Virus genome (UHGV): UHGV-0209657
DNA from: a virus
DNA: 55,055 bases
Direction: 5' to 3' (one strand)
Shown here: positions 4 to 53,240 of the stretch, in pieces
How positions within the stretch are numbered: position 1 is the stretch's first letter
Layout of the letters: every line of letters begins with the position of its first letter
Made by a program: the position numbers and the translations under genes
The notes under the pieces: generated by a model
Told to the model about the DNA's origin: nothing
Seen by the model: the letters and a program-made list of their open reading frames with translations, nothing else
Database searches by the model: none

Positions 4-207
4 TTAAACCTCGTCTATTACACCGTCTTTCACCCGCTCTTTTATATCCCATACATGAGGTTTGCATATTTCCTGATAATAGTGATCAGGCCTGCTGCCG
101 AAATACCATTTGCCTTCCATATAAAAGTAAACGCCCGAAAAGTTTCCGGGCGCTGCCTTTGTTGCTGCTTCTGGGATTTTCCACTCTTTATAGCGTTTAT
201 ACTTCAT
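4..207 (-). CDS. hypothetical protein (67 aa)
   Basis: Complete ORF in co-directional early-left gene string; no recognisable motif. Confidence 0.3.
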   Translation of the reverse strand: MKYKRYKEWKIPEAATKAAPGNFSGVYFYMEGKWYFGSRPDHYYQEICKPHVWDIKERVKDGVIDEV

Positions 208-2342: not shown

Positions 2343-2456
2343 TCACATGTTAGTAATGAGTTTAATGATCGCTACCGTGATATAAAGAGATACACTGAGA
2401 TACAGCACGGCGATAGATAAAGCCGCAAGCAATGCGGCAATTTTTGCAAAGCTCAT
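2343..2456 (-). CDS. small hydrophobic peptide (37 aa, MSFAKIAALLAALSIAVLYLSVSLYITVAIIKLITNM)
   Basis: Micro-ORF whose ATG overlaps stop of upstream gene (ATGA); hydrophobic helix. Confidence 0.3.
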   Translation of the reverse strand: MSFAKIAALLAALSIAVLYLSVSLYITVAIIKLITNM

Positions 2457-2983: not shown

Positions 2984-3388
2984 TCAAAACGGGATATCGT
3001 CATCAAAGTCCATCGGCGGATTATTCCCGTTATTATTCTGCTGCTGCGGAGGCGCTTTCTGCTGCTGGCCTTGTTGGTTAACGTTCATGAATTCAAATTC
3101 GTTAACCGCCACTTCTACCGCCGTTCCCTTCGTGCCGTCGTTCCGGTCATATTGCCGAACATCCAGGCGACCGCTTACCACTATTTTTCCACCCTTGCGG
3201 ATATGTGGCGCTAATTTTTCCGCACGCTCACCAAATACCAGGCAAGTGACCCACATTGTCCGCTTATTATCGCCGTAGCCATTCGTTACAGCTAACGGAA
3301 AACTACCAATCGCTTTCCCGTTTTGTGTGTAGCGAACCTCCATATCATTACCGATATTCCCGCCCAGCGTGATTGAATTTAAACTCAT
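2984..3388 (-). CDS. ssb: single-stranded DNA-binding protein
   Basis: OB-fold-like N-terminus, Gln/Pro-rich linker and acidic C-terminal tail DFDDDIPF typical of SSB; ATG confirmed at 3386-3388. Confidence 0.9.
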   Translation of the reverse strand: MSLNSITLGGNIGNDMEVRYTQNGKAIGSFPLAVTNGYGDNKRTMWVTCLVFGERAEKLAPHIRKGGKIVVSGRLDVRQYDRNDGTKGTAVEVAVNEFEFMNVNQQGQQQKAPPQQQNNNGNNPPMDFDDDIPF

Positions 3389-4032
3389 TAACCCATCTCC
3401 CCGTTAAGCTCTGCTACCCGGATGTCATAAACATCTTTTGCCTTGATTCGATGTTCCGATCCTTCCGGTAGTAATTTCCAGCATTTGCCAAATATTTCAC
3501 GCAGCTTGTTAGCGTCCTGCGCTTTCGCTGCTGCATCACAGAAACGTGCTAATACTTCATCAGGATTTGGCGGCGCTTTCTGCTGCTGTGGTTGTTGTTT
3601 TGGTGGGTTTTTCTGCTGGCGAGGCTGCTGGCCTGTCTGCTTAGCGTATGCGTCAGTATCAGGATCTCGCGCATCATCAATGCAGAATAAACCGTTCAAA
3701 GCATATTTTCGCGCGTAACTTGATGTCGCACCTGTTAGCTGGCTTGCGTCCATTCCCTTCTTGCTTTCTTCTTCCCTGGCGTAAGCCGTTACCGCTATTT
3801 CGTCTTCACCGTCGCTTAGCGTCGCCGTAGCTTTCACATAATAGCGATTGCCGATCAGGACAATTTCATCGCTTACAGTCAGCGTAATACTTTGAAGCAG
3901 TGGTTTAACCGCCTCTAAAATATCCTCCGCCGACCTGTAATTATATCCACCAAAATTATTACGCTGATTTTTCGGCGCGTTCAGCGTTTGCTGAATCGTC
4001 CATAGCTTTTTATGTAACTCTGTTTTCACCAT
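3388..4032 (-). CDS. erf: Erf-family single-strand annealing recombination protein
   Basis: Motif GATSSYARKYALNGLF recalled from ERF-type annealing proteins; translationally coupled to ssb; Q/P-rich C-terminus. Confidence 0.6.
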   Translation of the reverse strand: MVKTELHKKLWTIQQTLNAPKNQRNNFGGYNYRSAEDILEAVKPLLQSITLTVSDEIVLIGNRYYVKATATLSDGEDEIAVTAYAREEESKKGMDASQLTGATSSYARKYALNGLFCIDDARDPDTDAYAKQTGQQPRQQKNPPKQQPQQQKAPPNPDEVLARFCDAAAKAQDANKLREIFGKCWKLLPEGSEHRIKAKDVYDIRVAELNGEMG

Positions 4033-4178
4033 TTAATCTCCCGTGCTGTTAACACTATGTATAAGGCTTTATTCGCGGCGCTCCACATTTCGGCATCGTG
4101 AAGCATTTCCGCTACTGCCAGTTTGAATTGAAGCGCCTGAATAACCATAATGTCACCTCCGGATGTTTACATTTTGTA

Positions 4179-4469
4179 TTAATGGTAGCGGACTTTATCC
4201 AGGGGTTTTTCCCCTAAATGGCGTGGTTGCGTTGCGTGGTAGTAGCTGCCGCTTTCATTTTCCGTATACCATTTTACTGATCCTTTGCGACGTTCTTTAA
4301 TGCTATTTGGTTTGCATCTTTCCTCGTTTGCAAATCGAATAGCTTTATCCACATTGTCTGTTTTATTGATTGCAGGTGATGATTTTCTTTCGTTTTCTCT
4401 TTTTATTTTTCTGCGTTCCCTGGCATTCAGTTTACTGTCACATTTGCCATACATGATTGTAACGCTCAT
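4179..4469 (-). CDS. basic protein with N-terminal arginine-rich motif, possible N-like antiterminator
   Basis: First gene after candidate leftward promoter; NARERRKIKRENERK resembles an ARM; GGAG RBS before ATG. Confidence 0.3.
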   Translation of the reverse strand: MSVTIMYGKCDSKLNARERRKIKRENERKSSPAINKTDNVDKAIRFANEERCKPNSIKERRKGSVKWYTENESGSYYHATQPRHLGEKPLDKVRYH

Positions 4470-4807
4470 AATCTGATCTCCGTATATCCTTGATGATACT
4501 TAATAAAAAATCATCTTCGTTAATTGCCGCACTTCCAGCGGCTGACCAGATTGTTAATGAGCGGCTTAACATCTTTCAACTAATCCCGCAATCATCGCCG
4601 TTCCCGGCGTGACCTTGCTCACTCCAAGCAAGCTGACTCGTCGCCTTGCGTGCGGTTTCGTGGGGGATGTAACGCTTTAAACACCCCATGCGCCTTGTTA
4701 TCAGTGCCGCTTTCGGTCCCCCATCGGGGAGTTACTCCACGGTTGACAAGGTGTTAAGCCTGATTTTTAAAGTGCCAGGAAGTTGCTTTTGTTACCTGCG
4801 ACCTTCC

Positions 4808-4836
4808 TTTGACTCGCAATATACGCCCCGTAAAAC
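4808..4836 (-). promoter_or_regulatory. candidate leftward early promoter (TTGACT - 17 nt - TATATT)
   Basis: Read on minus strand: -35 at 4831-4836, -10 at 4808-4813, between cI and the leftward operon. Confidence 0.4.
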
Positions 4837-4935
4837 ATCGAGTCAATCCATTTTGTATACTTTTTTAAAATATTTTATATGCTATTGATATTTAAACAAT
4901 AAATAACGTTTTCTGTTTACGTTTTGGCGTTTTCC

Positions 4936-4965
4936 AGGCAAAGAAAAGCCGCCATCCGGCGGCTA
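4936..4965 (-). terminator. rho-independent terminator after cI
   Basis: Hairpin AGCCGCC-atcc-GGCGGCT followed on minus strand by TTTTCTTTG. Confidence 0.5.
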
Positions 4966-4969
4966 ATGT

Positions 4970-5617
4970 TTATGGCAGGTTTACGATCTTCGCATCAACC
5001 ACCACGCCTATAATTTTTGATTCTGGATTCATAGGGATTGGCGGATACAGCGGATTGAGCGAACGTAAAAGCCTTTGACCTCCATCAATAATCAACTGTT
5101 TAAACGTCGGTATCTGCCCTTCCTCAAGCTGGGCTATAACCAGTTTGCCGTCAATAGCTGGCGCGTGCGGGTCAACAAGTATCATCGTCCCCGCCGGGAT
5201 GCTCAACCCCTGCGGCGCGTTCATTGATTCACCTTTGGCAACCAGCCAGTAACTATCATCTGAACAAATAACGCTAGTCGTAACGTGTGGTAATGCTGAT
5301 CGCCTTGTGTCATCCATATTGTTTACTGTGTCCTTCCAGTCAATAACCGGGTAACTACCTAAATCACGCGGCGGTGCGGCCTGAAGTGTATTAGAAACAG
5401 AATCATCAATGACCATACCATCATGTGTAACAGTGAACTGCCGACGACCAAGCGCCCGCATAATCCGCGCAATATCTTCAAGATTTGGCTCGCGGCGACC
5501 GTTCAGCCAGTGTGACAGGCCGCCTTTAGTTATCCCCATGAGATCTGCGAGTGAATCCTGACTCATGCCCTGCGCCCGCATGAGCTGCTTTGCTAAGTCA
5601 TACCATTTTGTTTTCAT
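4970..5617 (-). CDS. cI: CI-like repressor (HTH plus S24 LexA-type autopeptidase domain)
   Basis: N-terminal HTH, C-terminal GESM Ser motif and downstream Lys; divergent from rightward operon. Confidence 0.85.
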   Translation of the reverse strand: MKTKWYDLAKQLMRAQGMSQDSLADLMGITKGGLSHWLNGRREPNLEDIARIMRALGRRQFTVTHDGMVIDDSVSNTLQAAPPRDLGSYPVIDWKDTVNNMDDTRRSALPHVTTSVICSDDSYWLVAKGESMNAPQGLSIPAGTMILVDPHAPAIDGKLVIAQLEEGQIPTFKQLIIDGGQRLLRSLNPLYPPIPMNPESKIIGVVVDAKIVNLP

Positions 5618-5676
5618 GTCGCTACCCTATAACCTCAAAAAGTTTGATGCAAGTCACAAAACGTGTATTTTAAGCC

Positions 5677-5704
5677 TTGATCTTAAAATTCCATTTTGTA
5701 AACT
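5677..5704 (+). promoter_or_regulatory. candidate rightward early promoter (TTGATC - 16 nt - TAAACT)
   Basis: Sigma70-like hexamers in cI-cro intergenic region; spacer ends with CCATTTTG. Confidence 0.4.
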
Positions 5705-5741
5705 TGCAGACAAGGTAAGGCCATACTTGCAAAGACGCAAG
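5703..5741. promoter_or_regulatory. candidate repressor operators
   Basis: Inverted repeats CTTG-N4-CAAG (5703-5714) and CTTGC-N6-GCAAG (5726-5741) overlapping the promoter -10/+1. Confidence 0.35.
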
Positions 5742-5922
5742 GAAAAAGATAACTGAAGGCACAAAAAGGCACTTACCTTATGCTCTTTAAAAATCCGGTG
5801 TCGCTGCGAAGCGAAAAACAAATATCACGCAACGGCGGGATCTGTTGAGCGGTCAGTCACTGCTATCTAATGCTAATGGGATGCCCGCCCGCGCGTTCAC
5901 TCTAACCATAGGAGAAAATGCG

Positions 5923-6180
5923 ATGAGTATGAACATGATTAGTAAAGCATGGAACGTAAAACTTAATAGCCCGATTCAAAAACTTGTCTTAATGGCTCTG
6001 GCTGAAAAGGCAGATAACAAAGGACGGGTACATGATGCATCACGCAAAGAAGTAGCCGCAATGTGTGAACTTCCTGTTCATACGGTACATGATGCCTTCG
6101 CCGCGTTAATGGATAAAGGATTTGTTTGTCGTCTTGATGCATTCAGTGATGTCTATGTAGTGATGTTGCCGGAGGGATGA
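5923..6180 (+). CDS. small HTH DNA-binding protein (Cro/CII position)
   Basis: ATG at 5923 with GGAG RBS (listed start 5845 is non-ATG); helix-turn-helix-like segment; first gene of rightward operon. Confidence 0.5.
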   Translation: MSMNMISKAWNVKLNSPIQKLVLMALAEKADNKGRVHDASRKEVAAMCELPVHTVHDAFAALMDKGFVCRLDAFSDVYVVMLPEG

Positions 6181-6183
6181 TCT

Positions 6184-7230
6184 ATGAAGTGGTTTAAGCA
6201 TGACAGCGATGCGAACCGCGATGAAAAACTTCAAAACGTTTTGTTAGATTATGGCCTGGAAGGGTACGGGCTTTATTGGTATTGCCTCGAACTAATAACT
6301 TATGACGTAGATCAGCACAATCTGAATTTTGACCTACGACATGACGCGAGAATCATTGCGCGAAACGTCGGATCTACTGAAAAACGTATAGAAGAAATGA
6401 TGAAATACTTCATCGAAATTGGTTTGTTCGAATGTTCTCAAGGCCACATAACTTGCCTAAAGTTATTAAAAAGGCTGGACCAATCAATGACTTCTAAGAG
6501 CGCTTATAGGGCTGCTATAAACACAGCGAAGGAGCAATTAAAATTAGAGAAGTTAATCAATCCAACACCAAAAGGTCATGATAGGGTCATGACCGGGTCA
6601 GGAAAGGGTCATGAATTAGAAGTAGAAGAAGAAAGAGAAAAAGATATATACACTTCGTGTATTAGCGAAAATGGACAAAAAACGGTCAATCAGGATGGCG
6701 TAAACGAAGCGGCATTGCGTTGCTTGGCCTTCTACAACGACAAAGCTGGATGCAAGTGTCGTGATGCTAAGCCATTTATCGAACTACTGACAGAAACAAA
6801 AACACGTAAGGCATACACGGAGGATGAGATCACATTAGTAATCGAATGGGCTTTGACGCAATGGCGCAGCCGTGGTGGAACACCTAAGCCTATCAACATT
6901 TGCCGGGTAACTAAATTCGATGGGTATCTGGCTGACGCTGAGCAATGGCGCAAGCTATCAGCTACTGTAAACGCTGCCGACGTGGTGGAAGCATTTAACA
7001 GCACGTTTGACGGCCTGTTACCACCTGCCGAACTGGATCGGGATCTTGAACGCAAGATCTATGCGTTCACTGACTACCTGAAAGACAAAAGCATTAACGG
7101 CTTTGTCGCCTACTTCGAAACGTTCAAAAACACGGCTTCAGATTTTTACTTCGGCAATGGCTTCACTGCGACACTTGATTTCCTGCTTAAACCAAAAACG
7201 CTACGTGATACGCGCGCTGGCGCTCTTTGA
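6184..7230 (+). CDS. replication initiation / replisome organiser protein
   Basis: N-terminus MKWFKHDSDANRDEKL...GLEGYGLYWYCLE matches recalled DUF4373 replication N-domain; GGAGGG RBS; upstream of helicase. Confidence 0.7.
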   Translation: MKWFKHDSDANRDEKLQNVLLDYGLEGYGLYWYCLELITYDVDQHNLNFDLRHDARIIARNVGSTEKRIEEMMKYFIEIGLFECSQGHITCLKLLKRLDQSMTSKSAYRAAINTAKEQLKLEKLINPTPKGHDRVMTGSGKGHELEVEEEREKDIYTSCISENGQKTVNQDGVNEAALRCLAFYNDKAGCKCRDAKPFIELLTETKTRKAYTEDEITLVIEWALTQWRSRGGTPKPINICRVTKFDGYLADAEQWRKLSATVNAADVVEAFNSTFDGLLPPAELDRDLERKIYAFTDYLKDKSINGFVAYFETFKNTASDFYFGNGFTATLDFLLKPKTLRDTRAGAL

Positions 7231-7363
7231 CCAACCACGATCCGCAAAAATCCAAAATTACCCACAAAACAACCTCACCAGCGAGCTAAATCGCATGTGG
7301 TGCTACACTTGCTTACCTTTTTGCGATTAGCTCGTTAGAGAGCGTTACAGAGAGGATTTTAAA

Positions 7364-7465
7364 ATGGATAGTAAACACGTTTTCGCCCTGGCTTTCGCCA
7401 TAGCTGCGGCAATAGATGTTAACGTCGTTTTGTTCGGCGGTTTGTACCTTCTCGTTAATCCATAA
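7364..7465 (+). CDS. small hydrophobic peptide (33 aa, MDSKHVFALAFAIAAAIDVNVVLFGGLYLLVNP)
   Basis: ATG micro-ORF with GAGAGGA RBS; below ORF-track cutoff. Confidence 0.25.
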   Translation: MDSKHVFALAFAIAAAIDVNVVLFGGLYLLVNP

Positions 7466-7618
7466 CCTACCTACCAGTCTGTAAACCGAAAATTAGCCAC
7501 CTGATAGCGTCTCTGGCGCAATAAGACACTGCAACCTGTGCAAACGGGTTACGCGGTGGGATTTTTGCGTTGTAGCGCGTCTGAGGCGTTATATAGAAAA
7601 TTAATAAAGGAGGTATAT

Positions 7619-13959: not shown

Positions 13960-15113
13960 TCCGCAAACTTATTTAGTGCCTCCTTTTGTTCATCAAGATA
14001 ATCATATTTATCGTACACCGCCAGTATCCCCCTTAATGAATGGCCTAAGACCTTTTCTGCAATATGTACCGGAACACCTATAGCTGAAAGGTGTGTCCGG
14101 CACGTCCTGCGGAGGTCGTGACAGGACCATGATTTACCGCCCATCCTTTTACGCACGAATATTGCAGCTACTTTTATCACTGATGCGTTTACTGGCCTGT
14201 TGCCGCCGTTAATCACTGGCGGGAATACATAATCATACTCATGGGAGGTTAAAACCTCCCTGAGCATTTTTATCGACAAGTCAGATAATCCCCGCCTGAT
14301 TTCACTTCTTGTCTTCGCCACCGCCGCCGGAACGGTCCACACACCGTTGTCCAGGTCTAGGTGTTCCCTTCTCATTTTCTGCAATTCACCAACCCTGCAC
14401 CCGGTTAGCAATAATAGCTTTAAGGCTATTTTGTTCTGCGGATAGATCTGCGAACTGTCTACCGTGCGCCAGAAGTGGCCTATCTCCTCACATGAAAGGT
14501 AACGCTCCCCCACCGCATAATGCTCGCCAACGTCAGCTACACGGATATTGTTTATCGCCGTGTTAGTCATTAGCCCGCGCCTGATTGCGCTGTTAACGAT
14601 GATTTTCATTCGCTTCAATATCAAACCAGCCGTAACCGCGTGACCCGCCGCAGTGATCTCGCCAAATATATCCATCCACTGTTTTGTCGTTACGTCGTCA
14701 GCTATGTAGTCGCCGTACTTGTTGACAACATGGCGCATCAATGCGCTTTTGACTTCTTTATATGCCACCAGCTTAATGATGTTCGGCAGGGATAGATAGT
14801 CTTCCACTACGTCTGTTATCGATCTCTTGCCCTGTTCAAAGGCTATGGCCTGCTTTACGCACAGTGCCGGATTCTTCCCTTTCGCAAGCAACTCCCTGTA
14901 TTCAGCCACCGCATAGCGGGCGTCTTTCAGACTCATTTTCCCGTACTCGCCGATCTTCATTCGCACTGGCTTGCCGTTGAATCTGTAACGGTACTGGAAA
15001 GTAATTTTCCCTTTTGGACTTATCCTGGCTGACAGACCGTCACGATCAGCTATCTCGCTTGGGCCGTCATATGGCTTGTTGGCAATAGTCCTTAACCTGG
15101 TATCCGTAAGCAT
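13923..15113 (-). CDS. int: tyrosine integrase (P4-type)
   Basis: N-terminal arm-binding-like domain, C-terminal HDLRRT box and catalytic Tyr region; ATG with GGGGGTG RBS. Confidence 0.9.
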   Translation of the reverse strand: MLTDTRLRTIANKPYDGPSEIADRDGLSARISPKGKITFQYRYRFNGKPVRMKIGEYGKMSLKDARYAVAEYRELLAKGKNPALCVKQAIAFEQGKRSITDVVEDYLSLPNIIKLVAYKEVKSALMRHVVNKYGDYIADDVTTKQWMDIFGEITAAGHAVTAGLILKRMKIIVNSAIRRGLMTNTAINNIRVADVGEHYAVGERYLSCEEIGHFWRTVDSSQIYPQNKIALKLLLLTGCRVGELQKMRREHLDLDNGVWTVPAAVAKTRSEIRRGLSDLSIKMLREVLTSHEYDYVFPPVINGGNRPVNASVIKVAAIFVRKRMGGKSWSCHDLRRTCRTHLSAIGVPVHIAEKVLGHSLRGILAVYDKYDYLDEQKEALNKFADYVLSLADVKPI

Positions 15114-15126
15114 GTTGCACCCCCAA

Positions 15127-15390
15127 TTTTGGTCACGTTTTGGTACACAGTTTTTGTTGTACGGATATTAACAGTATTGTACGGAATTAGAAACGCGATG
15201 CTGGGTTTTGGTTACAACAGGATGATTTTTAAGTAATTTTAGTGGAGAGATTGAACGGAGTTAAACACCTTTAAACATAGTGCGCTGGTCCTGTCTGGAA
15301 TGATTAGTGTAACGAATAATCATTTATAAAACATAATGTTATGTTGTTTTTGATTTTAGTTTTTGATATTTGGTCACTATTTGGTACACA
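15127..15390. other. candidate attP / integrase arm-site region
   Basis: 22-bp imperfect direct repeats TTTGGTCAC..TTTGGTACACA at 15127-15149 and 15369-15390; TTGTACGGA repeated twice; next to int. Confidence 0.35.
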
Positions 15391-15418
15391 AAAAGAAACG
15401 AGGCGTTAGCCTCGTTTC
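15385..15418 (-). terminator. terminator at end of late operon
   Basis: 10-bp stem GAAACGAGGC/GCCTCGTTTC with T-run on minus strand. Confidence 0.55.
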
Positions 15419-15461
15419 TCGGCGATGCTTTCAACATCACCATGCTATCACTGCCGCATCA

Positions 15462-15728
15462 TTAAGCCCATGCGCGGACGCCTGGATCTGGAACGATGAA
15501 AGGCTCAAGCTGAGAAATATCAACATCGTCACCAGTTATACGCACGTTGACGTAATAACCTTTTTTCCCAATAAGTACAGGTGTCTCGCTTTCTGGATCG
15601 TCGAATACAAGGACAAAACCGATATCATCAATAAACACGGTTGACCAATTGGCATCCAGCCAGCCGCTATTAATCACAATGTCGTTGTATTGCTGTTTGT
15701 CAGTAAATTGCAAGCTAACGTCTTTCAT
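15462..15728 (-). CDS. hypothetical protein downstream of tail fibre
   Basis: ATG at 15726-15728 with AAGGTGG RBS; last gene of late operon. Confidence 0.35.
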   Translation of the reverse strand: MKDVSLQFTDKQQYNDIVINSGWLDANWSTVFIDDIGFVLVFDDPESETPVLIGKKGYYVNVRITGDDVDISQLEPFIVPDPGVRAWA

Positions 15729-15738
15729 GTTAACCACC

Positions 15739-17535
15739 TTAAACAATTTCGCTTAATTGCGCATCAGTTAATGCCTTATGCCATACTCGAAAATTTCTAA
15801 CATGACCAAATAAATGACGTTGTCCTGTCGTTGTCTGACCACCGATACGAATAGTTGCGGAGCTTTGAATATAAGTCCAGGTTGTTTTTGTTTCGCTGCT
15901 TAACTTACCGTTACTGACTACACATGTGGACCGTTCGGACTTTACCCGCATACCAATAAGCATTTTTTCCAGCCCGGCATTTTCATTTATTCGTCGGTTT
16001 GAACCACCTATATCACAATACGGAAAACCGTCGTACCCACCTGATGAACCAAACCCCATTACGATCGCCGCTCCGGTTTGATGACCGCCGGTATCAAAAA
16101 CACGCGGCGCTGCATTTGGCGTTTTATACCAGTTCTTATGTACCTCACAAAGAACCGTAAAAGGAAGATTATAAAGGTTATTCTTGATTGGGACTGTCAC
16201 CATATCGCTTGCCCGCGTTGCTGGTGCCGACCCCGTAACAATAAAAGATGATGCGCCTGCACCAGCCTCAATCTGTGGAGTGGTTACATCGAGACAATCC
16301 CCTGATGCCACCATCTGACCTGTATCCGGAGAATACTGGACGAAACCACCAACCGTATTTTCTGTTGTATCTGCTTTTAATGTAGCCTCAAAAAATATCC
16401 AGCCAGTTGCATCATCCTTAACAGACCTTGCTGTAACACGGCTTGTCTGACCTGTCTTGCTAATTATGCGGGTGGTAAGGTTCAGGTTTGCTGCTCCTAT
16501 TGATGTCCTTACCTCCCCATCATAATGTTCAAATAAAATACGAACGGCGATATTATCAACTTCACTTTTTACCCGACAGGATATAGTTACATGCTTTTCG
16601 TCCCCTGAAGTATCAACCCCTCCGGCACTCGAATACAGTCCGATAATGGTATGCGCTTTACTTGTACCAACAATCGAATCCTGTACGACAAACCGGCCAT
16701 AATTAAACCCAAAACTATCTGTGCCTGTTTCTGTAACGTCCAGTGAAGTTGACTTATTCCACTTCGAAGGGTCTGTACTGTTTATTAACAGGTTTGTGCG
16801 CGTCCCCTCAATCAGTAATCCTTCGCGTTCAAAACGTGGCTCATTAATACCAGCCACAGTTAAAACACCTGATTTGTTAATGTAAGTAGCAGTGCTTGCG
16901 CGTGAGAAAGAAACAACTTTATCTGATGATATTGTTTTTTCTTCCCCATTAATGGTTACTTTTTTAGTACCAGGGCCGTAGCCCGTGATCATATCGAGAG
17001 AATCGTTAAACGGTATCCATACGTCCGGCAGCGGTTGCAAAACATACGCGTAAGGCTGTGCGGTCTGATTGGCGTATTCGTGGGCTTCGTCTCTGTATGT
17101 CTTAGCTGAATCGGCTGCGCTTGTCGCTGTTGTTGCAGCGTTGGTTGCAGTGGTAGCTGATTGTGATGCTAATTTTGAGGCTGAAATCACATCTTTGTTG
17201 TCGCTAAAAAATTCAACTGCGTCCGCTATTTCTGATTCTTTGCCCTGATAGTAACGCAGTGTTTCGGCGACATCCTGAGCAAGACCATCCACAGAGATCG
17301 AATCTGAAAGCAGGATGCTAAATTTAGTTCCAGCCGGAATAGCCGGACTTGCCGCAGGAGTTACCGACAAACTTGTTGCGCTTTTTACCTTTGTGATTGA
17401 AAAAATCTGCACCGGATCGCTAATGGCAATAAGAGTGCAACCCACTCTGATCAGAGATAATGCGGCGTTGAATTCAGTCCCTGCCCCGGTAACTGTGTTT
17501 CCGCTAACAGCTATAGTGCCTGTTGTGTAAATCAT
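15739..17535 (-). CDS. side tail fibre protein
   Basis: 598 aa, Ala/Thr/Ser-rich N-terminal shaft-like region, position after J. Confidence 0.55.
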   Translation of the reverse strand: MIYTTGTIAVSGNTVTGAGTEFNAALSLIRVGCTLIAISDPVQIFSITKVKSATSLSVTPAASPAIPAGTKFSILLSDSISVDGLAQDVAETLRYYQGKESEIADAVEFFSDNKDVISASKLASQSATTATNAATTATSAADSAKTYRDEAHEYANQTAQPYAYVLQPLPDVWIPFNDSLDMITGYGPGTKKVTINGEEKTISSDKVVSFSRASTATYINKSGVLTVAGINEPRFEREGLLIEGTRTNLLINSTDPSKWNKSTSLDVTETGTDSFGFNYGRFVVQDSIVGTSKAHTIIGLYSSAGGVDTSGDEKHVTISCRVKSEVDNIAVRILFEHYDGEVRTSIGAANLNLTTRIISKTGQTSRVTARSVKDDATGWIFFEATLKADTTENTVGGFVQYSPDTGQMVASGDCLDVTTPQIEAGAGASSFIVTGSAPATRASDMVTVPIKNNLYNLPFTVLCEVHKNWYKTPNAAPRVFDTGGHQTGAAIVMGFGSSGGYDGFPYCDIGGSNRRINENAGLEKMLIGMRVKSERSTCVVSNGKLSSETKTTWTYIQSSATIRIGGQTTTGQRHLFGHVRNFRVWHKALTDAQLSEIV

Positions 17536-17732
17536 CGCAATAACTCCGTTTTGTTAATTAACTAAACAATTCTACCATTTTGTGATCTGTGTTACACTTT
17601 GGGCTTATACATAATGTATTTTTTGATCTATATCAACATACGAAATGATAGCTTCTGCGGTGATTTGCTCATCGGATGGGTGGATCATCACGAACAACAA
17701 ATGACAGTAAAACAAACAGTAAGGTGAATACA

Positions 17733-17978
17733 ATGAAAAAACTAATTGTTGCTTGCATCTTATCAGCTCTGTCTTTTGGTGCTTTTGCTTCTGTAAATTC
17801 GACAGATAAGAGTGATGCTGGCACTGCTCAATATGGTGATACTGGCCTTGATAACCAACGTTCGAGTTATTTCAATACTGACTCATGGAAAGAAAAACAA
17901 CTACAAGGTAAAATTATTGACAGTGAATGTAATTTACCTATCCATTTTTCTGGTGTAAATGATGGGTGTAAAAAATAA
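17733..17978 (+). CDS. small secreted protein with signal peptide (opposite-strand moron)
   Basis: MKKLIVACILSALSFGAFA signal peptide; AAGGTGA RBS; between J and tail fibre on opposite strand. Confidence 0.5.
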   Translation: MKKLIVACILSALSFGAFASVNSTDKSDAGTAQYGDTGLDNQRSSYFNTDSWKEKQLQGKIIDSECNLPIHFSGVNDGCKK

Positions 17979-17989
17979 AAACAATGCAT

Positions 17990-18020
17990 AAAAAAAACGG
18001 GGCTTATGCCCCGTTTTTTA
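17990..18020. terminator. bidirectional hairpin terminator
   Basis: ACGGGGC-ttat-GCCCCGT flanked by A-run and T-run. Confidence 0.6.
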
Positions 18021-21000
18021 TGCTGTCGTTGATGTTCTAAATGATCCGGTGCCTCTTGCTACTATCATTGTTGGAGAATACAACGCGGTACAATATGCGT
18101 ATCCTTCAGATGATGATGTTTGAGGACAATATATTTTCCCGATAATATCTGATGCTTTTAAACCAGAAAAAGCGCATTGCACTGTTAATGTGCATCCACC
18201 ATAAGGCACGTAATATGAAATTGTTTTGTTTTTATCTCCGCAACTAAACGTTACGTTATAAGTGGATCTATATTCACCAGACATTAATGAAATAGTCGCC
18301 ATAAGCATAACTGATTTCGTCAATGCATTATCCGTGCTGTCTTTATATGTGATGGTTGCGCTATAACTTCCGTTATGCCCAAGCACTCGATCTGGACCAA
18401 CCCCCATGTTAGCAACGTCACCGACAAATGATTTTGCCTCTACTGTACCTTTAAACTTCCCGCTTGTGGCCTGAATCTCACCAGTGAATTTACCAGATGT
18501 TGCGTACACCGTACCGCGTACAGTGACGTTGTTGAACTCCGCATTGCCGTTTTTATTTAGCATCCAGCCAGCCGAACCAGCTTTATAGTTGGTTGACTGA
18601 ATTTGCTGCGCAATCTTCGCGGTAGTGATTGATGCGTCTCTGATCCACGCATCACGGATGTAGCAAGCACCGTTAGTAACATAGAACGGGGTCTGATAGG
18701 AGCCACCTGCCGCAGTCATAAGCACGAAACGGTCAACGAGGAAAATACACTGCGATTGAACGTTAGTCCCGCTACCAGTAAGGCCGAGCGACATTCCTGT
18801 AGCGTATTTCATACCGTTTTTATCAGTGGCAATCTTAATTGAATATGACGCATCAACGTTACCTTTGAAGTCAGTCAGTGCTTTTGATGTCGTTTCTATC
18901 GCCGTTGTGTTTCCGTTAATAGTTACTTTCAACTGGTCGATTCTGGTTGACAATGCCTCGTCTGCCGTTGCCATAGCCTGTGACCATTCCGTGATGCTTG
19001 AGTTTACATCGTCGAAAGATGCCGAGATCTGGCCAAATTTTTCCGCGCTTGATGTTTCATGCGTAGAAAGTGCAGTTGACACTTCGGATACTTTCGAATT
19101 AATCGTACTGGTAAGCGATGAGTTAAGGCTGCTGATTGCGTCAGTGCGTGCATTCTTCTCATCTGCGATCGCTTTATCCATCCTGGTTACGTTGCTTGTC
19201 ACCTTGCTATCGAGCGTGGAAATTGACGCATTAACCCCGCTAATAGCTTCTGCGCGTGCGCTCGCCTCATCTGCGATTGCTTTATCAAGACGGGAAACGC
19301 TCGCGTCGGTTTTGCTTTCAAGACTACTGACGCTGGCGTTAACGTTGCTAATAGCTTCTGCGCGTGCGCTCGCCTCATCTGCGATTGCTGTGTCTACCCT
19401 TGCTATTTCCGCTTTTGTTTTTGTTTGTCCTTTCCTGTATTTCGCCTCAATAACAGTGCTCATCTTGCTTTGCGCCATTGAGTTATTAATAAGCGCCAGA
19501 GATGCGTTTTGCAGACTTGCTTTCGCCTGTTCTATCTCGTCGCTGTTTTTATCAACCTCACTTTTAACGCCGCCAAGCGTCGCGCTGATACCTGATATCG
19601 CCTGAGCACGTGCGCTTGATTCATCAGCGATAGCTTGATCAAGACGGCTAACACTGGCATTTGTGTTATTTTCAAGCGTTGTTAAATCAGCTTTAACCAC
19701 TGTTATTGCGTCGCTTCTTGCCTGCGTTTCATCTGATATTGCATTATCGAGGCGCTTAACGCTGGCGTCAGTTTTCTTGTCAAGTGTTGAGATACTTGCG
19801 TTCACGTCGCTGATAGCCTGAGTACGCGCACTTGTTTCGTCTGCAATTGCCTGATCAAGACGGTTTACGCTGGCGTCAGTTTTCTTGTCAAGATTGCTTA
19901 TTGAGGCATTTACACCGTTAATAGCTTCAGCGCGGGCGCTGGCCTCGTCAGCTACTGCGCGTTGCACATTAGAGATCTGACCTTTAAGGTTTGTGTCCAT
20001 CACATTCATTTCTGCCGTGATGGTTTCCAGTGATTCCGCTGTCGCTTTTTTCTCTTCAGCGATAACGTTGTCAATGCGGTCAATTTCCGCTTTCGTCTCT
20101 GTCCTGCCTTTCTTGTACTGAGCGGTAAGAGTTACGCGAGTGTTAGTCTGTGCAAGCGAGTTATTAATAAGAGCAAGTGAGGCGTTTTGCAGACTTGCTT
20201 TTGCTTGCGCCAGTTCGCTGCCAACTTTTTCGCTAGACACCTCCAGCGAGTCGATTCTCGACTCATGCTGTCCAATATCATCGGCGTTTTCCTTAACTTT
20301 TTTATAAAGATCTTCCGTTTCTTTTTTGAGCGTATCAGTATCAGCTTTTATTGATCCTGTTTCTATGGTTAGGTTGTCAGTTTCAGTCCTTAAATCGTCA
20401 GTTATGTTGGTCAGATTATCAGTTGCAGTTTTGAGGTTGTCAGTAGCAGTTTTAAGGTCATTCGTAGCGCTTTCGATAAGATCAGTGCGGTCGCCTAGAT
20501 CTTTAATGTCACCAACCATTTCTTTAAATTGTTTGGAATTCATTACGTCTTTGGTGACGTAATCGGTAATTTCATCAAAGTTTTCTGTTGGCTTACCTGA
20601 CGCTTCCACAAAGTCAGACACACCAAAAGCGTTACGCGCGCGCACATAAACGTAATATGTGTGACCTGTATTCATGCCGCCAAACGTCCACTGATGACCA
20701 CGCCCGGTATATTGTGCTTTAGTGGTTATTGATGCCGGATCAGTGATCTGCGTTTCACCTGAGTAATAAAACTCGTAACTGGTATCAGTGGTGAGCGTTG
20801 TTCTGCTGATCGGGTAAACTGTAGCCTGGAATACACCGGGAACCCAATTAACGCCAACTGGGGCCGCTGGTGCGCCAATAACCAGATCGACAATGCTTTC
20901 CGCACCCTTCATGCCCGTGTCATTTCTGCCACGAATGCCTAATGAGTAGTTGCCAGCATCAATGCCATAAAAATCATAACTGTAATTCGTGGTTTCGTAG

Positions 21001-22988
21001 CTTTTAACTACAGCGCCTTCGGCGTTATACACGCGAATCTCAAAGGTCAGGCGACGCGTTGTCGTCTGTGTTTCCCATGTTGCGCGACATTGAACCGTTT
21101 CAGATCCAACGTTTAACACCTTCAGATTTTCAATGTTCGGCACGCGGAAGTGATTAAGCGTGTCGTTATTGATCTCGAAGATTGCGCCATTATCGACTAC
21201 GGCCTGCTTATGTGGATCATGCTGTGCGGCCTCGATGGTGTATACGCTGTTATTTTCTGTTTCTGCTACACTGGTGATTCGACATAAAACGGGTTTTGCT
21301 GCGTTGGTTGATACAGCAAAAACAGTGCCGTTACGAATCCACGCCGGGGCGGCTGCAAGGGTGATAATGTTCCCGTTAACTCCGATGATCTGGTGTTTTT
21401 TAAATTTACCATCGCTATCAAGTAAGCTGATGGTGTCGCCAGCCGCGATATATTCAGAATCAACCTTGTCGACCGTGATCGCTCTGCCATTGTTCGCCAC
21501 GATGCGACCGCCTAAACGAGCGCCTGCGCGATTATTATCGAGGATCTCGATTATATCCCCCGGCGTAAAGTGAATGGCGTCACGGGCCATTTTAAATGTG
21601 AATTTTGACGGCTCGCGTTTCGCTGTTTCGATCAGCCATTTACCAGCGCGGTGCGCTTGCCCGCGTGAAGTGCAACCGAACGCCTCCAACGTGGTTTCGT
21701 TATAACCATCACGGGCGATTAGTTTATCATCTGCGACATATTCTTTTGATTGCTCCCAGCCGTTTTCAGGGTCAGTCCAGGATACGATCACGGCGTTGTA
21801 GCATTCTGCGCGTGCGATACTTGAACGAGTAAACGCGCCATCAACGACGTTTGCATTTGTGATGGTGGCGATTGGATCTTGTGGCGCATCAATCATCACG
21901 GTAAGACGTTGTCCGTCCCATAACGCGATACCACGGAACATACCTGCGATGTTATCCAGTAGGTCGCGGGCGCTCATTTGCTCCGTAATGTAAGCGTTAA
22001 GCGTCATGCGAGGTTCAAGGCCACCATAGCCATCATCAACCAACTGATCGCAGTATTGAGAAAGCACGTACAAAGCGCCATCATCAACATCAATGTAACC
22101 AGCATGTCGAGCAAGTCCAAAGCGCTCGTTTTTAACCAGATACCGGAAAAGCCATGCAGGGTTATTGGTATACGCCTTTTTAAATCCACCAAGCCATAAA
22201 CCTGAATATGTGCGCGTTTCAGGGTTGTAATTGTCAGGCACATCAACAATCAGGCCGCGAAGGTGATAGGTGCGGGTAGGCGTATCAGTATACTGATCAT
22301 GGTCAATTACGGCGCCAGCTACAGCGGTATGAGGATAAGACAGATTATCATCTATTATTTCGCTGTAACTACTCCACCGCGTATCATTCCGCAATAGATC
22401 GCCGTTGCTGTCTGGTGTTATGCGACGAACGCGAATATCAAACGGTTTTTCATCCGGCGCTTTAATGATGTGAGCTTCCAGGTATTCACCGCTTTGTTTA
22501 CCAGGGCCAATGTGTATGTCTTTAATCAGCGACCACGTAGAAGATGATGACGGTTTAACATCAACCATCAACATGACGGATGTATTATATTGATTGCCCT
22601 TTTCATCTGACTGAACGAGAGCATCAACACCAAGATTCAACCTGACGCGGGTAACGTTTGGATCTGAAACAGTCCTGATTATTGGTGTGTCGTGAGTTAC
22701 CTTTGCGTTGACAATAACGGTTGACTCAATGGCGTTAAAACCATTAATCGGCGATTGGTCAGCCGTGCCGTTGCGCCAGGCTATACTAATCCCCGGAATT
22801 GATGTATTCCCGTTTGCGTCAGTAACAGGAGTGTCATTAAGCATCACGTCATTCAATGGCGCTTTCTGGTTTACCGGACCGTATATCGGCCCTTCGCTGA
22901 GAATATCTAAAACACGATAAAACTGTTTGTGATACAGGTTATCGTTCAATAATGTTGGTGTTTTGGCTTTGCCGCCGCCGCTACTCAT
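18018..22988 (-). CDS. J: host specificity protein J-like tail tip protein with expanded coiled-coil repeat region
   Basis: N-terminus GGKAKTPTLLNDNL..ILSEGPIYGP matches recalled lambda J; 1656 aa; central repeats. Confidence 0.85.
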   Translation of the reverse strand: MSSGGGKAKTPTLLNDNLYHKQFYRVLDILSEGPIYGPVNQKAPLNDVMLNDTPVTDANGNTSIPGISIAWRNGTADQSPINGFNAIESTVIVNAKVTHDTPIIRTVSDPNVTRVRLNLGVDALVQSDEKGNQYNTSVMLMVDVKPSSSSTWSLIKDIHIGPGKQSGEYLEAHIIKAPDEKPFDIRVRRITPDSNGDLLRNDTRWSSYSEIIDDNLSYPHTAVAGAVIDHDQYTDTPTRTYHLRGLIVDVPDNYNPETRTYSGLWLGGFKKAYTNNPAWLFRYLVKNERFGLARHAGYIDVDDGALYVLSQYCDQLVDDGYGGLEPRMTLNAYITEQMSARDLLDNIAGMFRGIALWDGQRLTVMIDAPQDPIATITNANVVDGAFTRSSIARAECYNAVIVSWTDPENGWEQSKEYVADDKLIARDGYNETTLEAFGCTSRGQAHRAGKWLIETAKREPSKFTFKMARDAIHFTPGDIIEILDNNRAGARLGGRIVANNGRAITVDKVDSEYIAAGDTISLLDSDGKFKKHQIIGVNGNIITLAAAPAWIRNGTVFAVSTNAAKPVLCRITSVAETENNSVYTIEAAQHDPHKQAVVDNGAIFEINNDTLNHFRVPNIENLKVLNVGSETVQCRATWETQTTTRRLTFEIRVYNAEGAVVKSYETTNYSYDFYGIDAGNYSLGIRGRNDTGMKGAESIVDLVIGAPAAPVGVNWVPGVFQATVYPISRTTLTTDTSYEFYYSGETQITDPASITTKAQYTGRGHQWTFGGMNTGHTYYVYVRARNAFGVSDFVEASGKPTENFDEITDYVTKDVMNSKQFKEMVGDIKDLGDRTDLIESATNDLKTATDNLKTATDNLTNITDDLRTETDNLTIETGSIKADTDTLKKETEDLYKKVKENADDIGQHESRIDSLEVSSEKVGSELAQAKASLQNASLALINNSLAQTNTRVTLTAQYKKGRTETKAEIDRIDNVIAEEKKATAESLETITAEMNVMDTNLKGQISNVQRAVADEASARAEAINGVNASISNLDKKTDASVNRLDQAIADETSARTQAISDVNASISTLDKKTDASVKRLDNAISDETQARSDAITVVKADLTTLENNTNASVSRLDQAIADESSARAQAISGISATLGGVKSEVDKNSDEIEQAKASLQNASLALINNSMAQSKMSTVIEAKYRKGQTKTKAEIARVDTAIADEASARAEAISNVNASVSSLESKTDASVSRLDKAIADEASARAEAISGVNASISTLDSKVTSNVTRMDKAIADEKNARTDAISSLNSSLTSTINSKVSEVSTALSTHETSSAEKFGQISASFDDVNSSITEWSQAMATADEALSTRIDQLKVTINGNTTAIETTSKALTDFKGNVDASYSIKIATDKNGMKYATGMSLGLTGSGTNVQSQCIFLVDRFVLMTAAGGSYQTPFYVTNGACYIRDAWIRDASITTAKIAQQIQSTNYKAGSAGWMLNKNGNAEFNNVTVRGTVYATSGKFTGEIQATSGKFKGTVEAKSFVGDVANMGVGPDRVLGHNGSYSATITYKDSTDNALTKSVMLMATISLMSGEYRSTYNVTFSCGDKNKTISYYVPYGGCTLTVQCAFSGLKASDIIGKIYCPQTSSSEGYAYCTALYSPTMIVARGTGSFRTSTTA
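19000..20560 (-). repeat. intragenic tandem repeats within J
   Basis: Near-identical DNA blocks (19240-19295 vs 19350-19400; 19480-19530 vs 20160-20210) encoding about 33-aa repeats ASVxRLDxAIADExSAR; boundaries approximate. Confidence 0.5.
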
Positions 22989-29548: not shown

Positions 29549-29602
29549 GATTTAACCTCATGCAAAAATGTGATCTGTGTATCTATTTTATACAAAATGG
29601 CT

Positions 29603-45960: not shown

Positions 45961-46022
45961 TATATAACAAAATGGCACTACCGAAACAATGCCATTTCGT
46001 AAACATTGTGATACAGATCACA
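45961..46022 (-). promoter_or_regulatory. candidate CRP-dependent class I promoter inside island
   Basis: Perfect TGTGA-N6-TCACA at 46007-46022; -35 TTGTTT (45984-45989) and -10 TATATA (45961-45966) on minus strand; CRP centre about 61 nt from inferred start. Confidence 0.35.
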
Positions 46023-52292: not shown

Positions 52293-52368
52293 AATGCTCT
52301 CTCCTTTTCAGGTGATTTCTACGCATTTCAGCGCTGCCGGATTTTTAAAGAGCATTTCGTTTGCTTGA

Positions 52369-52429: not shown

Positions 52430-52451
52430 CAATGGCGCCATTTTGTAAATT

Positions 52452-53240
52452 TCAGTCCGGTAAAACGCGGTTAAGCGTAGTGCGATTGATGGCCCGGTCG
52501 TTAGCCAGGAATACAGCACGGGCAAAGCCGCGCGGCGTTAGTGAGCGGATCATCTTAGTGCGTTTCGACTTTCCTCCTAACTTAGCGTGCTGCTTACTGT
52601 CTTCCCATTCATCAGGCATTGGCACAGGCCGGAATAGCGGCTGCTTAAATCCATTCCCGCACCAGATACAAGTTTTCTTCGTGTATGCGTCGCGGGCCGC
52701 TATGTATTCAGGGAAAGCAGGGTGTTTATCGTCTTCCGGCAGGTAGCCACCGTAAGCGCACGGGTTGAAGATAAAATCAGGTTTGCGCCATAACGTTGAC
52801 AGTGCGCCCACCGGATTTTCCACCATCCACGGCACGTTATACATATTCGCCAGTTTTTCTACCAGTTTTGCGTTATACGCCGCCTTTACCTGGAAGGCAG
52901 GATCTTTTTCCCGTTTACCAGCGAACCAGCGAGCGCCTGAAACGGCGAGATCGTCGCACGGCGGAAAGCCCAATATAATGTCAGGTGCTGGATAAGAAGA
53001 CAATTCAGGCGAGAACATTACCAGGAAATGGCTGTCAATCCACACGTTAACGTATTCAATATTAGGATGAATGATTTTAACGCCTTCATAATCGCCGTGA
53101 TTTGCACCGTCATAATTGAAGCAATAGCACTTATATCCCGCTTCCGCCCAATCTTTAACGGCGTACCCGCTGCCGTCGTACAGCGACCACACCACCCAAC
53201 TTCTAAGCCAATTATTTAACCAATGTTTGCCCTTGCTCAT
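52452..53240 (-). CDS. C5-cytosine DNA methyltransferase-like protein (compact)
   Basis: Motif I-like LYDGSG, motif IV-like GFPPC, motif VI-like ENPVG in canonical order; 262 aa. Confidence 0.5.
   Translation of the reverse strand: MSKGKHWLNNWLRSWVVWSLYDGSGYAVKDWAEAGYKCYCFNYDGANHGDYEGVKIIHPNIEYVNVWIDSHFLVMFSPELSSYPAPDIILGFPPCDDLAVSGARWFAGKREKDPAFQVKAAYNAKLVEKLANMYNVPWMVENPVGALSTLWRKPDFIFNPCAYGGYLPEDDKHPAFPEYIAARDAYTKKTCIWCGNGFKQPLFRPVPMPDEWEDSKQHAKLGGKSKRTKMIRSLTPRGFARAVFLANDRAINRTTLNRVLPD

Follow-up and report, generated by a model that had tools for sequence, protein, structure and literature searches.

A Gp17-type, lambda-N-like antiterminator gene, its nut-bearing leader and an optional structured RNA block in a genome of the mEpimmI coliphage group

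The closest described system to the locus analysed here is the Gp17/nut system of the mEpimmI phage group, which is reported by Valencia-Toxqui et al. 2023 (Arch Virol 168:92) and Negrete-Mendez et al. 2025 (PMC11893012). According to section 3.5 of PMC11893012, which cites Valencia-Toxqui 2023, Gp17 has been experimentally shown to be an N-lambda-like early antiterminator of coliphage mEp021, and three nut sites are named there as its targets, one upstream of gp17 itself (nutR1), a second downstream of a gene for a cytosine methyltransferase (nutR2) and a third upstream of the repressor gene (nutL). The same source reports Nus dependence for the mEpimmI phage group, gives terminators t1, t2 and t5 as demonstrated, and describes the phage as non-lambdoid outside its antitermination module. 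It also records that arginines 17, 19, 20 and 24 of Gp17 are conserved in 48 of 48 mEpimmI genomes and that position 21 is Arg in 45 of these 48 (PMC11893012). As the protein and its nut system have already been published for this phage group (2023 and 2025), our main finding is a re-discovery and holds no new biology, and the only new item is a folded RNA block of 214 nt, optional among relatives, in the leader of the gp17 transcript.

The window, that is, the whole stretch of 55,055 nt from virus genome UHGV-0209657, is the genome of a coliphage of the mEpimmI group (mEp021, mEp010, MagusPhagus), with 92-98% nucleotide identity and in circularly permuted form. Alignment to the mEp021 record, relative to which the window is a circular permutation, showed that mEp021 14800-21500 is colinear with window positions 2520->1 and then 55045->51095. 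Between positions 4000 and 5000 the window shows 92-98% nt identity to mEp010, mEp515, MagusPhagus, mEp021, mEp013, mEp044 and mEp554. We regard it as highly probable that region 4179-4836 forms the promoter-proximal end of the early operon in a temperate mEp021-like coliphage (mEpimmI group) with a Gp17/nut system of the lambda N type. Compared with the mEp021 system, the locus has the same neighbours, promoter hexamers, boxA, boxB, 214-nt block, three nut sites and terminators, and the differences are only allelic, such as a lysine at position 21 of the arginine-rich motif (ARM) and a start-codon context of ATGAGCG in the window rather than ATGACAG.

The first gene of this early operon, located beside the CI-type repressor gene, is an ORF of the minus strand at 4179..4469, which homology, the family profile and the literature identify as a Gp17-type N-like antiterminator gene. 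Its product of 96 aa has a pI of 9.9, and residues 9-29 (NARERRKIKRENERK) carry 10 K/R, in agreement with the basic 96-aa protein with an ARM-like N-terminus described in the initial annotation. The ORF is the counterpart of locus tag mEp021_17, and its orthologs share 92-97% aa identity with it (94% to mEp021 Gp17 and up to 97% to mEp010 and MagusPhagus); the MagusPhagus ortholog is annotated as 'anti-termination protein N-like'. The ARM extends over approximately residues 13-29, and the 14 alleles compared all have N15, A16, R17 and R20, while R19 and R24 are almost without variation. All four arginines R17, R19, R20 and R24 are present in the window protein.

We also compared the protein with the N family at large, as had been suggested from the sequence. 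The window protein matches phrog_271 ('anti-termination protein N-like') with E=1.1e-11 over residues 1-95, and lambda N (from NC_001416) matches the same family with E=4e-23, so that a family in common stands; a direct resemblance did not emerge, since pairwise BLASTP between lambda N and Gp17 was not significant. Against the Pfam family N_peptide (PF25694) Gp17 scored below the cutoff (15.8 vs 27.9 bits), and lambda N was sub-threshold as well. A sequence search with the Gp17 family profile for a relative of solved structure matched no PDB chain. Taken with the 92-97% identity to Gp17, an antiterminator shown as such, the phrog_271 family shared with lambda N and the nut site found in the leader support the identification of the protein at 4179-4469(-) as a lambda-N-like antiterminator, so that the reading offered in the initial annotation is upheld.

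The AlphaFold (AF2) model, built on a 14-sequence alignment that is shallow and makes low confidence ambiguous, showed no globular fold, with a mean pLDDT of 58 and a pTM of 0.25, and its highest-confidence part is a helix over residues 16-30, corresponding to the ARM. The lack of a globular fold together with an ARM helix would fit a disordered protein of the N type, and the shallow alignment makes this weak evidence. The family is narrow: a search of 5.8 billion proteins returned 32 clusters, all from E. coli or from gut samples and metagenomes, of which nearly all full-length ones show >=63% identity. None of these 32 clusters formed a bridge from the Gp17 family to other N proteins, and no Gp17 relatives were found in the GTDB representatives (one genome per species). 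Among the alleles the N-terminal ARM region differs (e.g. RERRKIKRENERK vs RARRRMKRAAEQD) and the C-terminal half is nearly invariant, as would be anticipated for an N-terminus that follows the RNA and a C-terminus in contact with conserved host machinery.

The early promoter of the gp17 operon is located at 4818..4846 on the minus strand and consists of a -35 hexamer TTGACT (4846-4841), a 17-nt spacer and a -10 hexamer TATATT (4823-4818). It is the leftward promoter pointed out in the initial annotation, its -35 hexamer lying just beyond position 4836, where that annotation had ended the region. The sequence agrees with the consensus at 10/12 positions, and the match alone is not significant, as a promoter scan found 5 promoter-like sites vs 5.1 expected. 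In all relatives examined the two hexamers are retained and the spacer varies (TTGACA-17-TATAGT in L095, TTGACA-17-TATATT in L096), which argues that the promoter is real. Its position is equivalent to that of lambda PL, and in the orientation of the mEp021 record it heads the 'rightward' operon. Directly upstream is the CI-like repressor gene (4970..5617, minus strand; HTH_3 + Peptidase_S24), whose transcription is separated from the gp17 promoter by a terminator at 4947..4964 on the minus strand, equal to mEp021 TERM_1. The gene order is as in lambda: repressor, terminator, promoter, nut (in the leader), gp17, Kil-like ORF, Erf and SSB.

Abutting the -35 hexamer, at 4848..4860 on the plus strand, is one of the 13 genome copies of the motif CCATTTTGTATAC, a candidate regulator-binding site for which 0.25 sites were expected in the genome. 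A promoter-like site was also seen on the plus strand at 4444-4472, antisense to the gp17 start, and in the alignment its mEp021 equivalent has a weaker -10 (CATGAT). ARAGORN detected no tRNA or tmRNA in the window.

The leader runs for ~340 nt between the predicted start (~4811) and the ATG (4469), close to the 330 nt estimated in the initial annotation. It has a minimum free energy of -119.8 kcal/mol and z = -5.0, and 0/100 shuffles folded as well. Approximately 250 nt into the leader we found the boxA and boxB elements expected of an N/nut arrangement. The boxA (4551..4563, minus strand; CGCTCATTAACAA), which belongs to the presumed mEp021 'nutR1', is an exact 13-mer, near-canonical and close to the rrn/lambda type, and an 8-nt spacer separates it from the boxB hairpin (4526..4542, minus strand; GCCGC-UGGAAGU-GCGGC). 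Across nearly all relatives boxA reads (C/T)GCTC(A/T)TTAA(C/A/T)AA, with minor variants that begin TTCTC or CATTC. The boxB alleles have five different stems, all of which pair, with GAAA-type loops: GCCGC/GCGGC with loop UGGAAGU in the window, GCUAC/GUAGC with UGAAAU in STEC308 and RM9245, UGCAC/GUGCA with UGAAAU in L051, GCACU/AGUGC with GAAA in L095, and UCGC/GCGA with UGAAAU in L096. Since the stems compensate across alleles, the boxA and boxB of the leader are supported as a nut site; furthermore, variation in boxB goes along with variation in the ARM from allele to allele.

The distal leader (4470..4525, minus strand) contains a hairpin GAUGAU..AUCAUC at 4515-4492 and a Shine-Dalgarno GGAG at 4481-4478, and its stretch GAUCAGAUUAUGAGCG is complementary to boxA and the spacer. 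BoxA and spacer could likewise pair with the region of the gp17 start (CGCUCAU opposite AUGAGCG, and AAUCUGGUC opposite GAUCAGAUU), and in other alleles the Shine-Dalgarno sequence offers a pairing partner for boxA. Among unique contexts, the variant of boxA and the context of the start codon go together 17:1 and 1:11, the two sites being 90 nt apart and hence linked. A translational coupling through this complementarity may be taken as a lead only, as boxA resembles an anti-Shine-Dalgarno sequence anyway.

Two further nut sites were detected in the window. The second, presumed to be mEp021 'nutL', is located in the divergent replication operon at 5781..5814 on the plus strand, with boxA TGCTCTTTAAAAA and boxB UCGC-UGCGAA-GCGA. 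The third, presumed to be 'nutR2', lies at 52321..52354 on the minus strand, with boxA TGCTCTTTAAAAA and boxB GCGC-UGAAAU-GCGU, and sits after methyltransferase genes, as published for nutR2. The colinearity with mEp021 across the window ends places this third site far downstream in the same leftward operon as gp17. On the minus strand, an intrinsic terminator downstream of gp17 (2422..2438), a putative read-through target, has the gene-order position of mEp021 TERM_2, and a terminator-like hairpin of the leftward operon (130..154) has the position of TERM_3.

The likenesses to lambda are several. N and Gp17 are small, basic proteins whose N-terminal ARM contains R-E-R-R, N being largely disordered and Gp17 perhaps so; each is encoded by the first gene of an early operon beside a cI-type repressor, and they share phrog_271 membership and, according to the literature, Nus-factor dependence. 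The lambda nut site (boxA CGCUCUUA, boxB GCCCU-GAAAA-AGGGC) resembles the sites described here in the succession of a boxA, approximately 8 nt and a short GC hairpin whose loop is purine-rich and GNRA-like. The differences are that lambda has two nut sites and this phage three, that the boxB loops here are U-GAAA-U, U-GGAAG-U or U-GCGA-A whereas that of lambda is a U-A-closed pentaloop, and that the leader nut site is ~250 nt from the start here, owing to the block, and 34 nt from it in lambda. The lambda N leader is also said, in work by Wilson and colleagues in 1997, to be processed by RNase III and to allow autoregulation of N through nutL. Both N-gene leaders carry a long structured element, and the boxA and spacer complementary to the SD-AUG region suggest that here, too, the nut RNA could contact the translation start; the two differ in that lambda has its processed hairpin between nutL and N, and the block precedes nut.

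The mechanism that we propose starts with RNA polymerase at the sigma-70 promoter 4846-4818(-), which would make the ~340-nt leader, so that the nut RNA (boxA 4563-4551, boxB 4542-4526) would be transcribed first and the coding region of the 96-aa Gp17-type protein after it. If the contacts are as in lambda N, the GNRA-like boxB loop on the nascent RNA would be bound by the arginine-rich helix (residues ~13-29) of Gp17, host NusB/NusE would occupy boxA, and the complex with NusA/NusG would render RNA polymerase termination-resistant. Modified in this way, the polymerase would pass two terminators (2438-2422 and 154-130), reload on reaching the third nut site (52354-52321) and read through the terminators of the nin-like region, and Gp17 would likewise serve the divergent replication operon through its nut site (5781-5814). 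Behind this scheme, sequence anatomy, homology and boxB covariation are observations of the present analysis; the antitermination activity and the action at three nut sites come from the literature on the mEp021 ortholog and the Nus dependence from that on the phage group, and the molecular contacts would be those of lambda N.

Between the promoter and the nut site is the optional structured block of 214 nt (4564..4777, minus strand). A closing stem of ~20 bp is formed by GGCUUAACAC.. (4760-4739) with ..GUUAAGCC (4583-4564). The GC hairpins cited in the initial annotation lie within this block: TCCCCGATGGGGGA (UCCCC-GAUG-GGGGA) is present at 4717..4730 on the minus strand, and it is not boxB or any other part of the nut site. 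The CTTGC/GCAAG repeat noticed there likewise exists, as the hairpin CUUGCUU-GGAGU-GAGCAAG at 4614..4632 on the minus strand, and its likeness to operators did not hold, since it is not enriched and behaves as an RNA hairpin kept by compensatory changes. In relatives of the STEC308/RM9245 type it is replaced by AUCACUU-GGAUU-GAGUGGU, which amounts to 3 compensatory pairs, a covariation limited to one hairpin and 2/15 unique variants and possibly due to a single event. Elsewhere in the block, U-A/U-G, G-U/G-C and C-G/U-G variation is compatible with pairing only on the gp17-sense strand. RNAalifold on the 15 unique variants gave a closed multi-branch fold with 61 pairs, and the block alone folds modestly better than shuffles (z = -2.2). 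No Rfam 15 family matched within 4564-4777 at E<=10, either in a 4-kb scan (3500-7500) or in a 346-nt scan (4470-4815).

Approximately three quarters of the relatives contain the block and one quarter do not. Alignment of the leaders showed that mEp013, mEp554, E. coli PAR, L051, L095, L096 and others without it keep the promoter, boxA, boxB and ribosome-binding site, and the nut site retained in these relatives indicates that N/nut function can dispense with the block. When metagenomes were scanned with the promoter-flank motif, 101 stretches were returned, of which 16 were mEp-like, with leaders, measured from that motif, of 156 nt, of 180-184 nt (no block) and of 393-394 nt (block); beyond these three lengths the 16 stretches contained no new block diversity. 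Where present, the block has the lowest diversity of the region: the mean pairwise difference in 32 unique block-containing sequences is 0.020, against 0.045 for the nut site, 0.07-0.08 for the promoter and flanking leader and 0.086 for gp17. In the STEC308/RM9245 type a 94% identical block stands beside a gp17 allele that is only 75% identical. The block is single-copy and restricted to this locus in 31/5426 E. coli genomes, where it is unannotated, and in 4 phage records, and a 17-mer scan of IMG/VR found it in the mEp group only, plus 5 chance matches in high-GC contigs.

At its 5' edge the block carries a sequence resembling boxA and its spacer (4759..4775, minus strand; GCACTTTAAAAATCAGG), so that it is bracketed by an imperfect boxA direct repeat formed by this site and the real boxA and spacer (4562-4546). 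At <=1 mismatch GCWCTTTAAMAATCNGG matches only the three nut sites and the GCACTTTAAAAATCAGG site. The block also has terminal inverted repeats (GGCTTAACA/TGTTAAGCC). We rejected a MITE or insertion element in spite of these inverted repeats and the flanking direct repeats, as there is one copy per genome and always at this locus.

Judged from the sequences, the block is probably an accessory structured RNA on the gp17 transcript that antitermination does not require. Most likely it would modulate the gp17 message in cis, in its processing, stability or timing, and it could for instance be a substrate of the RNase III type through the closing stem. We hold only tentatively, at somewhat less than even chances, that the block is a previously undescribed structured RNA module that either tunes Gp17 production or the assembly of the antitermination complex (by RNase III processing, or by a second boxA shown to NusB/NusE) or acts in trans as an early phage non-coding RNA.

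The main alternative to the cis role is that the block is a non-coding RNA with a trans-acting or anti-defence function, made abundantly from the first early promoter before antitermination, and thus an acquired module unrelated to the control of gp17. We consider this unlikely, while recognising that it would agree with the presence/absence polymorphism of the block, with its standing as the most conserved segment of the region even beside the 75%-identical gp17 alleles, with its transcription first after infection and with the lack of a match to any known RNA family. However, the block has no terminator or 3' end signal of its own, transcription continuing straight into boxA, no copies were found outside this locus, and we identified no target or partner.

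Slightly less probable still is that the block is a small protein-coding insertion (moron) whose RNA structure is incidental. Its 37-codon ORF 'gp16' (4576..4689, minus strand) is called in the annotations of mEp021, mEp010 and MagusPhagus, is intact from 4689 to 4576 at 37 codons in 14/15 unique variants and has a weak AAGG 4 nt upstream of the ATG. In the STEC308/RM9245 type, however, 6/6 codon changes are non-synonymous (Q->W, G->C and S->I among them), and the same nucleotide changes are pairwise compensatory in the hairpin; we consider gp16 unlikely as a coding gene. In addition, the stop codon is lost in one variant, PGAP annotates no gene there in 31 E. coli genomes, and the conservation spans the whole 214 nt rather than the 114-nt ORF.

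Far less probable than either is a reading that concerns the protein itself, according to which it would be an exclusion factor of the Nun type: located at the N position and equipped with an ARM, it would end the transcription of a competing phage, as in HK022, with the antitermination of the phage itself being RNA-based (put-like) and residing in the leader. The locus does resemble HK022 Nun/put in combining an ARM protein at the N position with structured RNA in a PL-type leader, which here is unusually long and significantly structured (z = -5.0), and the pairwise similarity to lambda N is undetectable. It differs from HK022 in that this phage has nut sites of its own and a protein-dependent system, with three boxA+boxB sites in its own early operons and a boxB that co-varies with the ARM among alleles, and in that the structured block is missing from about a quarter of the relatives, which retain the nut site. 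Moreover, no Rfam match was found in the leader, and PMC11893012 reports Gp17-dependent antitermination.

Equally improbable is that the CTTGC/GCAAG repeats of the leader are distal operators of the CI-like repressor that loop the DNA to operators between the repressor and replication genes, and we rejected it: a similar inverted repeat, CTTGC-N6-GCAAG, does occur in the divergent control region (5726-5741), but the window holds just two such repeats, of different spacing (N9 vs N6), a number reached or exceeded in 15/100 shuffles, relatives swap CTTGC/GCAAG for ATCAC/GTGGT with the pairing kept, which is the signature of an RNA structure and not of a protein-recognised sequence, and phages without the block belong to the same immunity group.

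These data show a lambda-N-like Gp17/nut system in a further genome of the mEpimmI coliphages, which are non-lambdoid and common in the human gut, yet use lambda-style Nus-dependent antitermination. Of modest use are the explicit coordinates, in this genome, of the three presumed nut sites, the comparative backing of the boxB hairpin by five compensating stems across alleles, and the recognition that the conspicuous structure of the leader is a dispensable but highly conserved RNA block. If this block controls the dosage or timing of Gp17, it would add a new level of regulation to an N-type system, in an E. coli phage that is tractable.

Alignment with the mEp021 genome showed that the window holds an mEp021-type genome in circularly permuted form, with positions 14800-21500 of mEp021 mapping to 2520->1 and continuing at 55045->51095. 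Because this mapping runs on across the window ends (1/55055), the early operon headed by gp17, the gene of the N-like antiterminator (4179-4469(-)), crosses the window boundary. Directly downstream of gp17 lies a 40-aa ORF (4026-4148(-)) whose match to lambda Kil is weak (E=2e-4 to Pfam PF06301, under the cutoff); in PHROGs it matches phrog_34942 (E=4e-32) and phrog_2055 (E=1e-3). The match extends a lambda-like arrangement of N, kil and recombination genes, the last being Erf (3388-4032) and SSB (2984-3388) here.

The gp17 start (4455-4480(-)) is complementary to boxA and the spacer of the leader nut site (4546-4563(-)), where CGCUCAU could pair with AUGAGCG and AAUCUGGUC with GAUCAGAUU; other gp17 alleles carry a Shine-Dalgarno sequence able to pair with boxA. 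The two sites also vary together, since the ATGAGCG start context occurs with the boxA variant CAT at 17:1 and ATGACxG with CTT-type boxA at 11:1. This complementarity may reflect a lambda-like autoregulation of N translation via nut, although the sites are linked and boxA is anti-Shine-Dalgarno-like in any case. Antisense to the gp17 start codon is a promoter-like site, TTGCCA-17-CATAAT (4444-4472(+), 10/12 consensus match), from which transcription would run back over the nut site and the optional structured leader block (4777-4564(-)). Its mEp021 counterpart has a weaker -10 (CATGAT), and the site may be a chance occurrence.

The 13-mer CCATTTTGTAWAC is present in 13 copies in the window (one mismatch at most), versus 0.25 expected, at 4848, 5691, 9960, 29617, 37591, 45992 and 52438 on the (+) strand and at 742, 25016, 26609, 27000, 29588 and 52370 on the (-) strand. 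Most copies lie in intergenic or divergent-promoter gaps. One adjoins the -35 of the gp17 promoter (4846-4818(-)), another falls in the control region of the repressor and replication genes, and a further two border the third nut site (52354-52321(-)). The copies at 29588(-) and 29617(+) are arranged as an inverted repeat with a 16-nt gap, and the copy at 45992(+) has a looser partner upstream at the same spacing. The repressor or another regulator may bind this motif throughout the genome, and as a candidate operator the motif ranks above the CTTGC/GCAAG inverted repeats noted in the initial annotation. A 34-nt inverted repeat, GGCGCCATT...AATGGCGC (52435-52468(-)), closely precedes the third nut site, at the position of mEp021 TERM_4; a simple terminator scan made no call for it.

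Comparison of relatives (L006, L007, L051, L095 and L096) revealed at least four Gp17 alleles, differing in the arginine-rich motif and in the boxB stem. The surrounding immunity regions are otherwise similar, and the repressor gene has the same length (215 aa) at every locus inspected. These sequence comparisons suggest that antitermination specificity was exchanged modularly or diverged within one immunity group.
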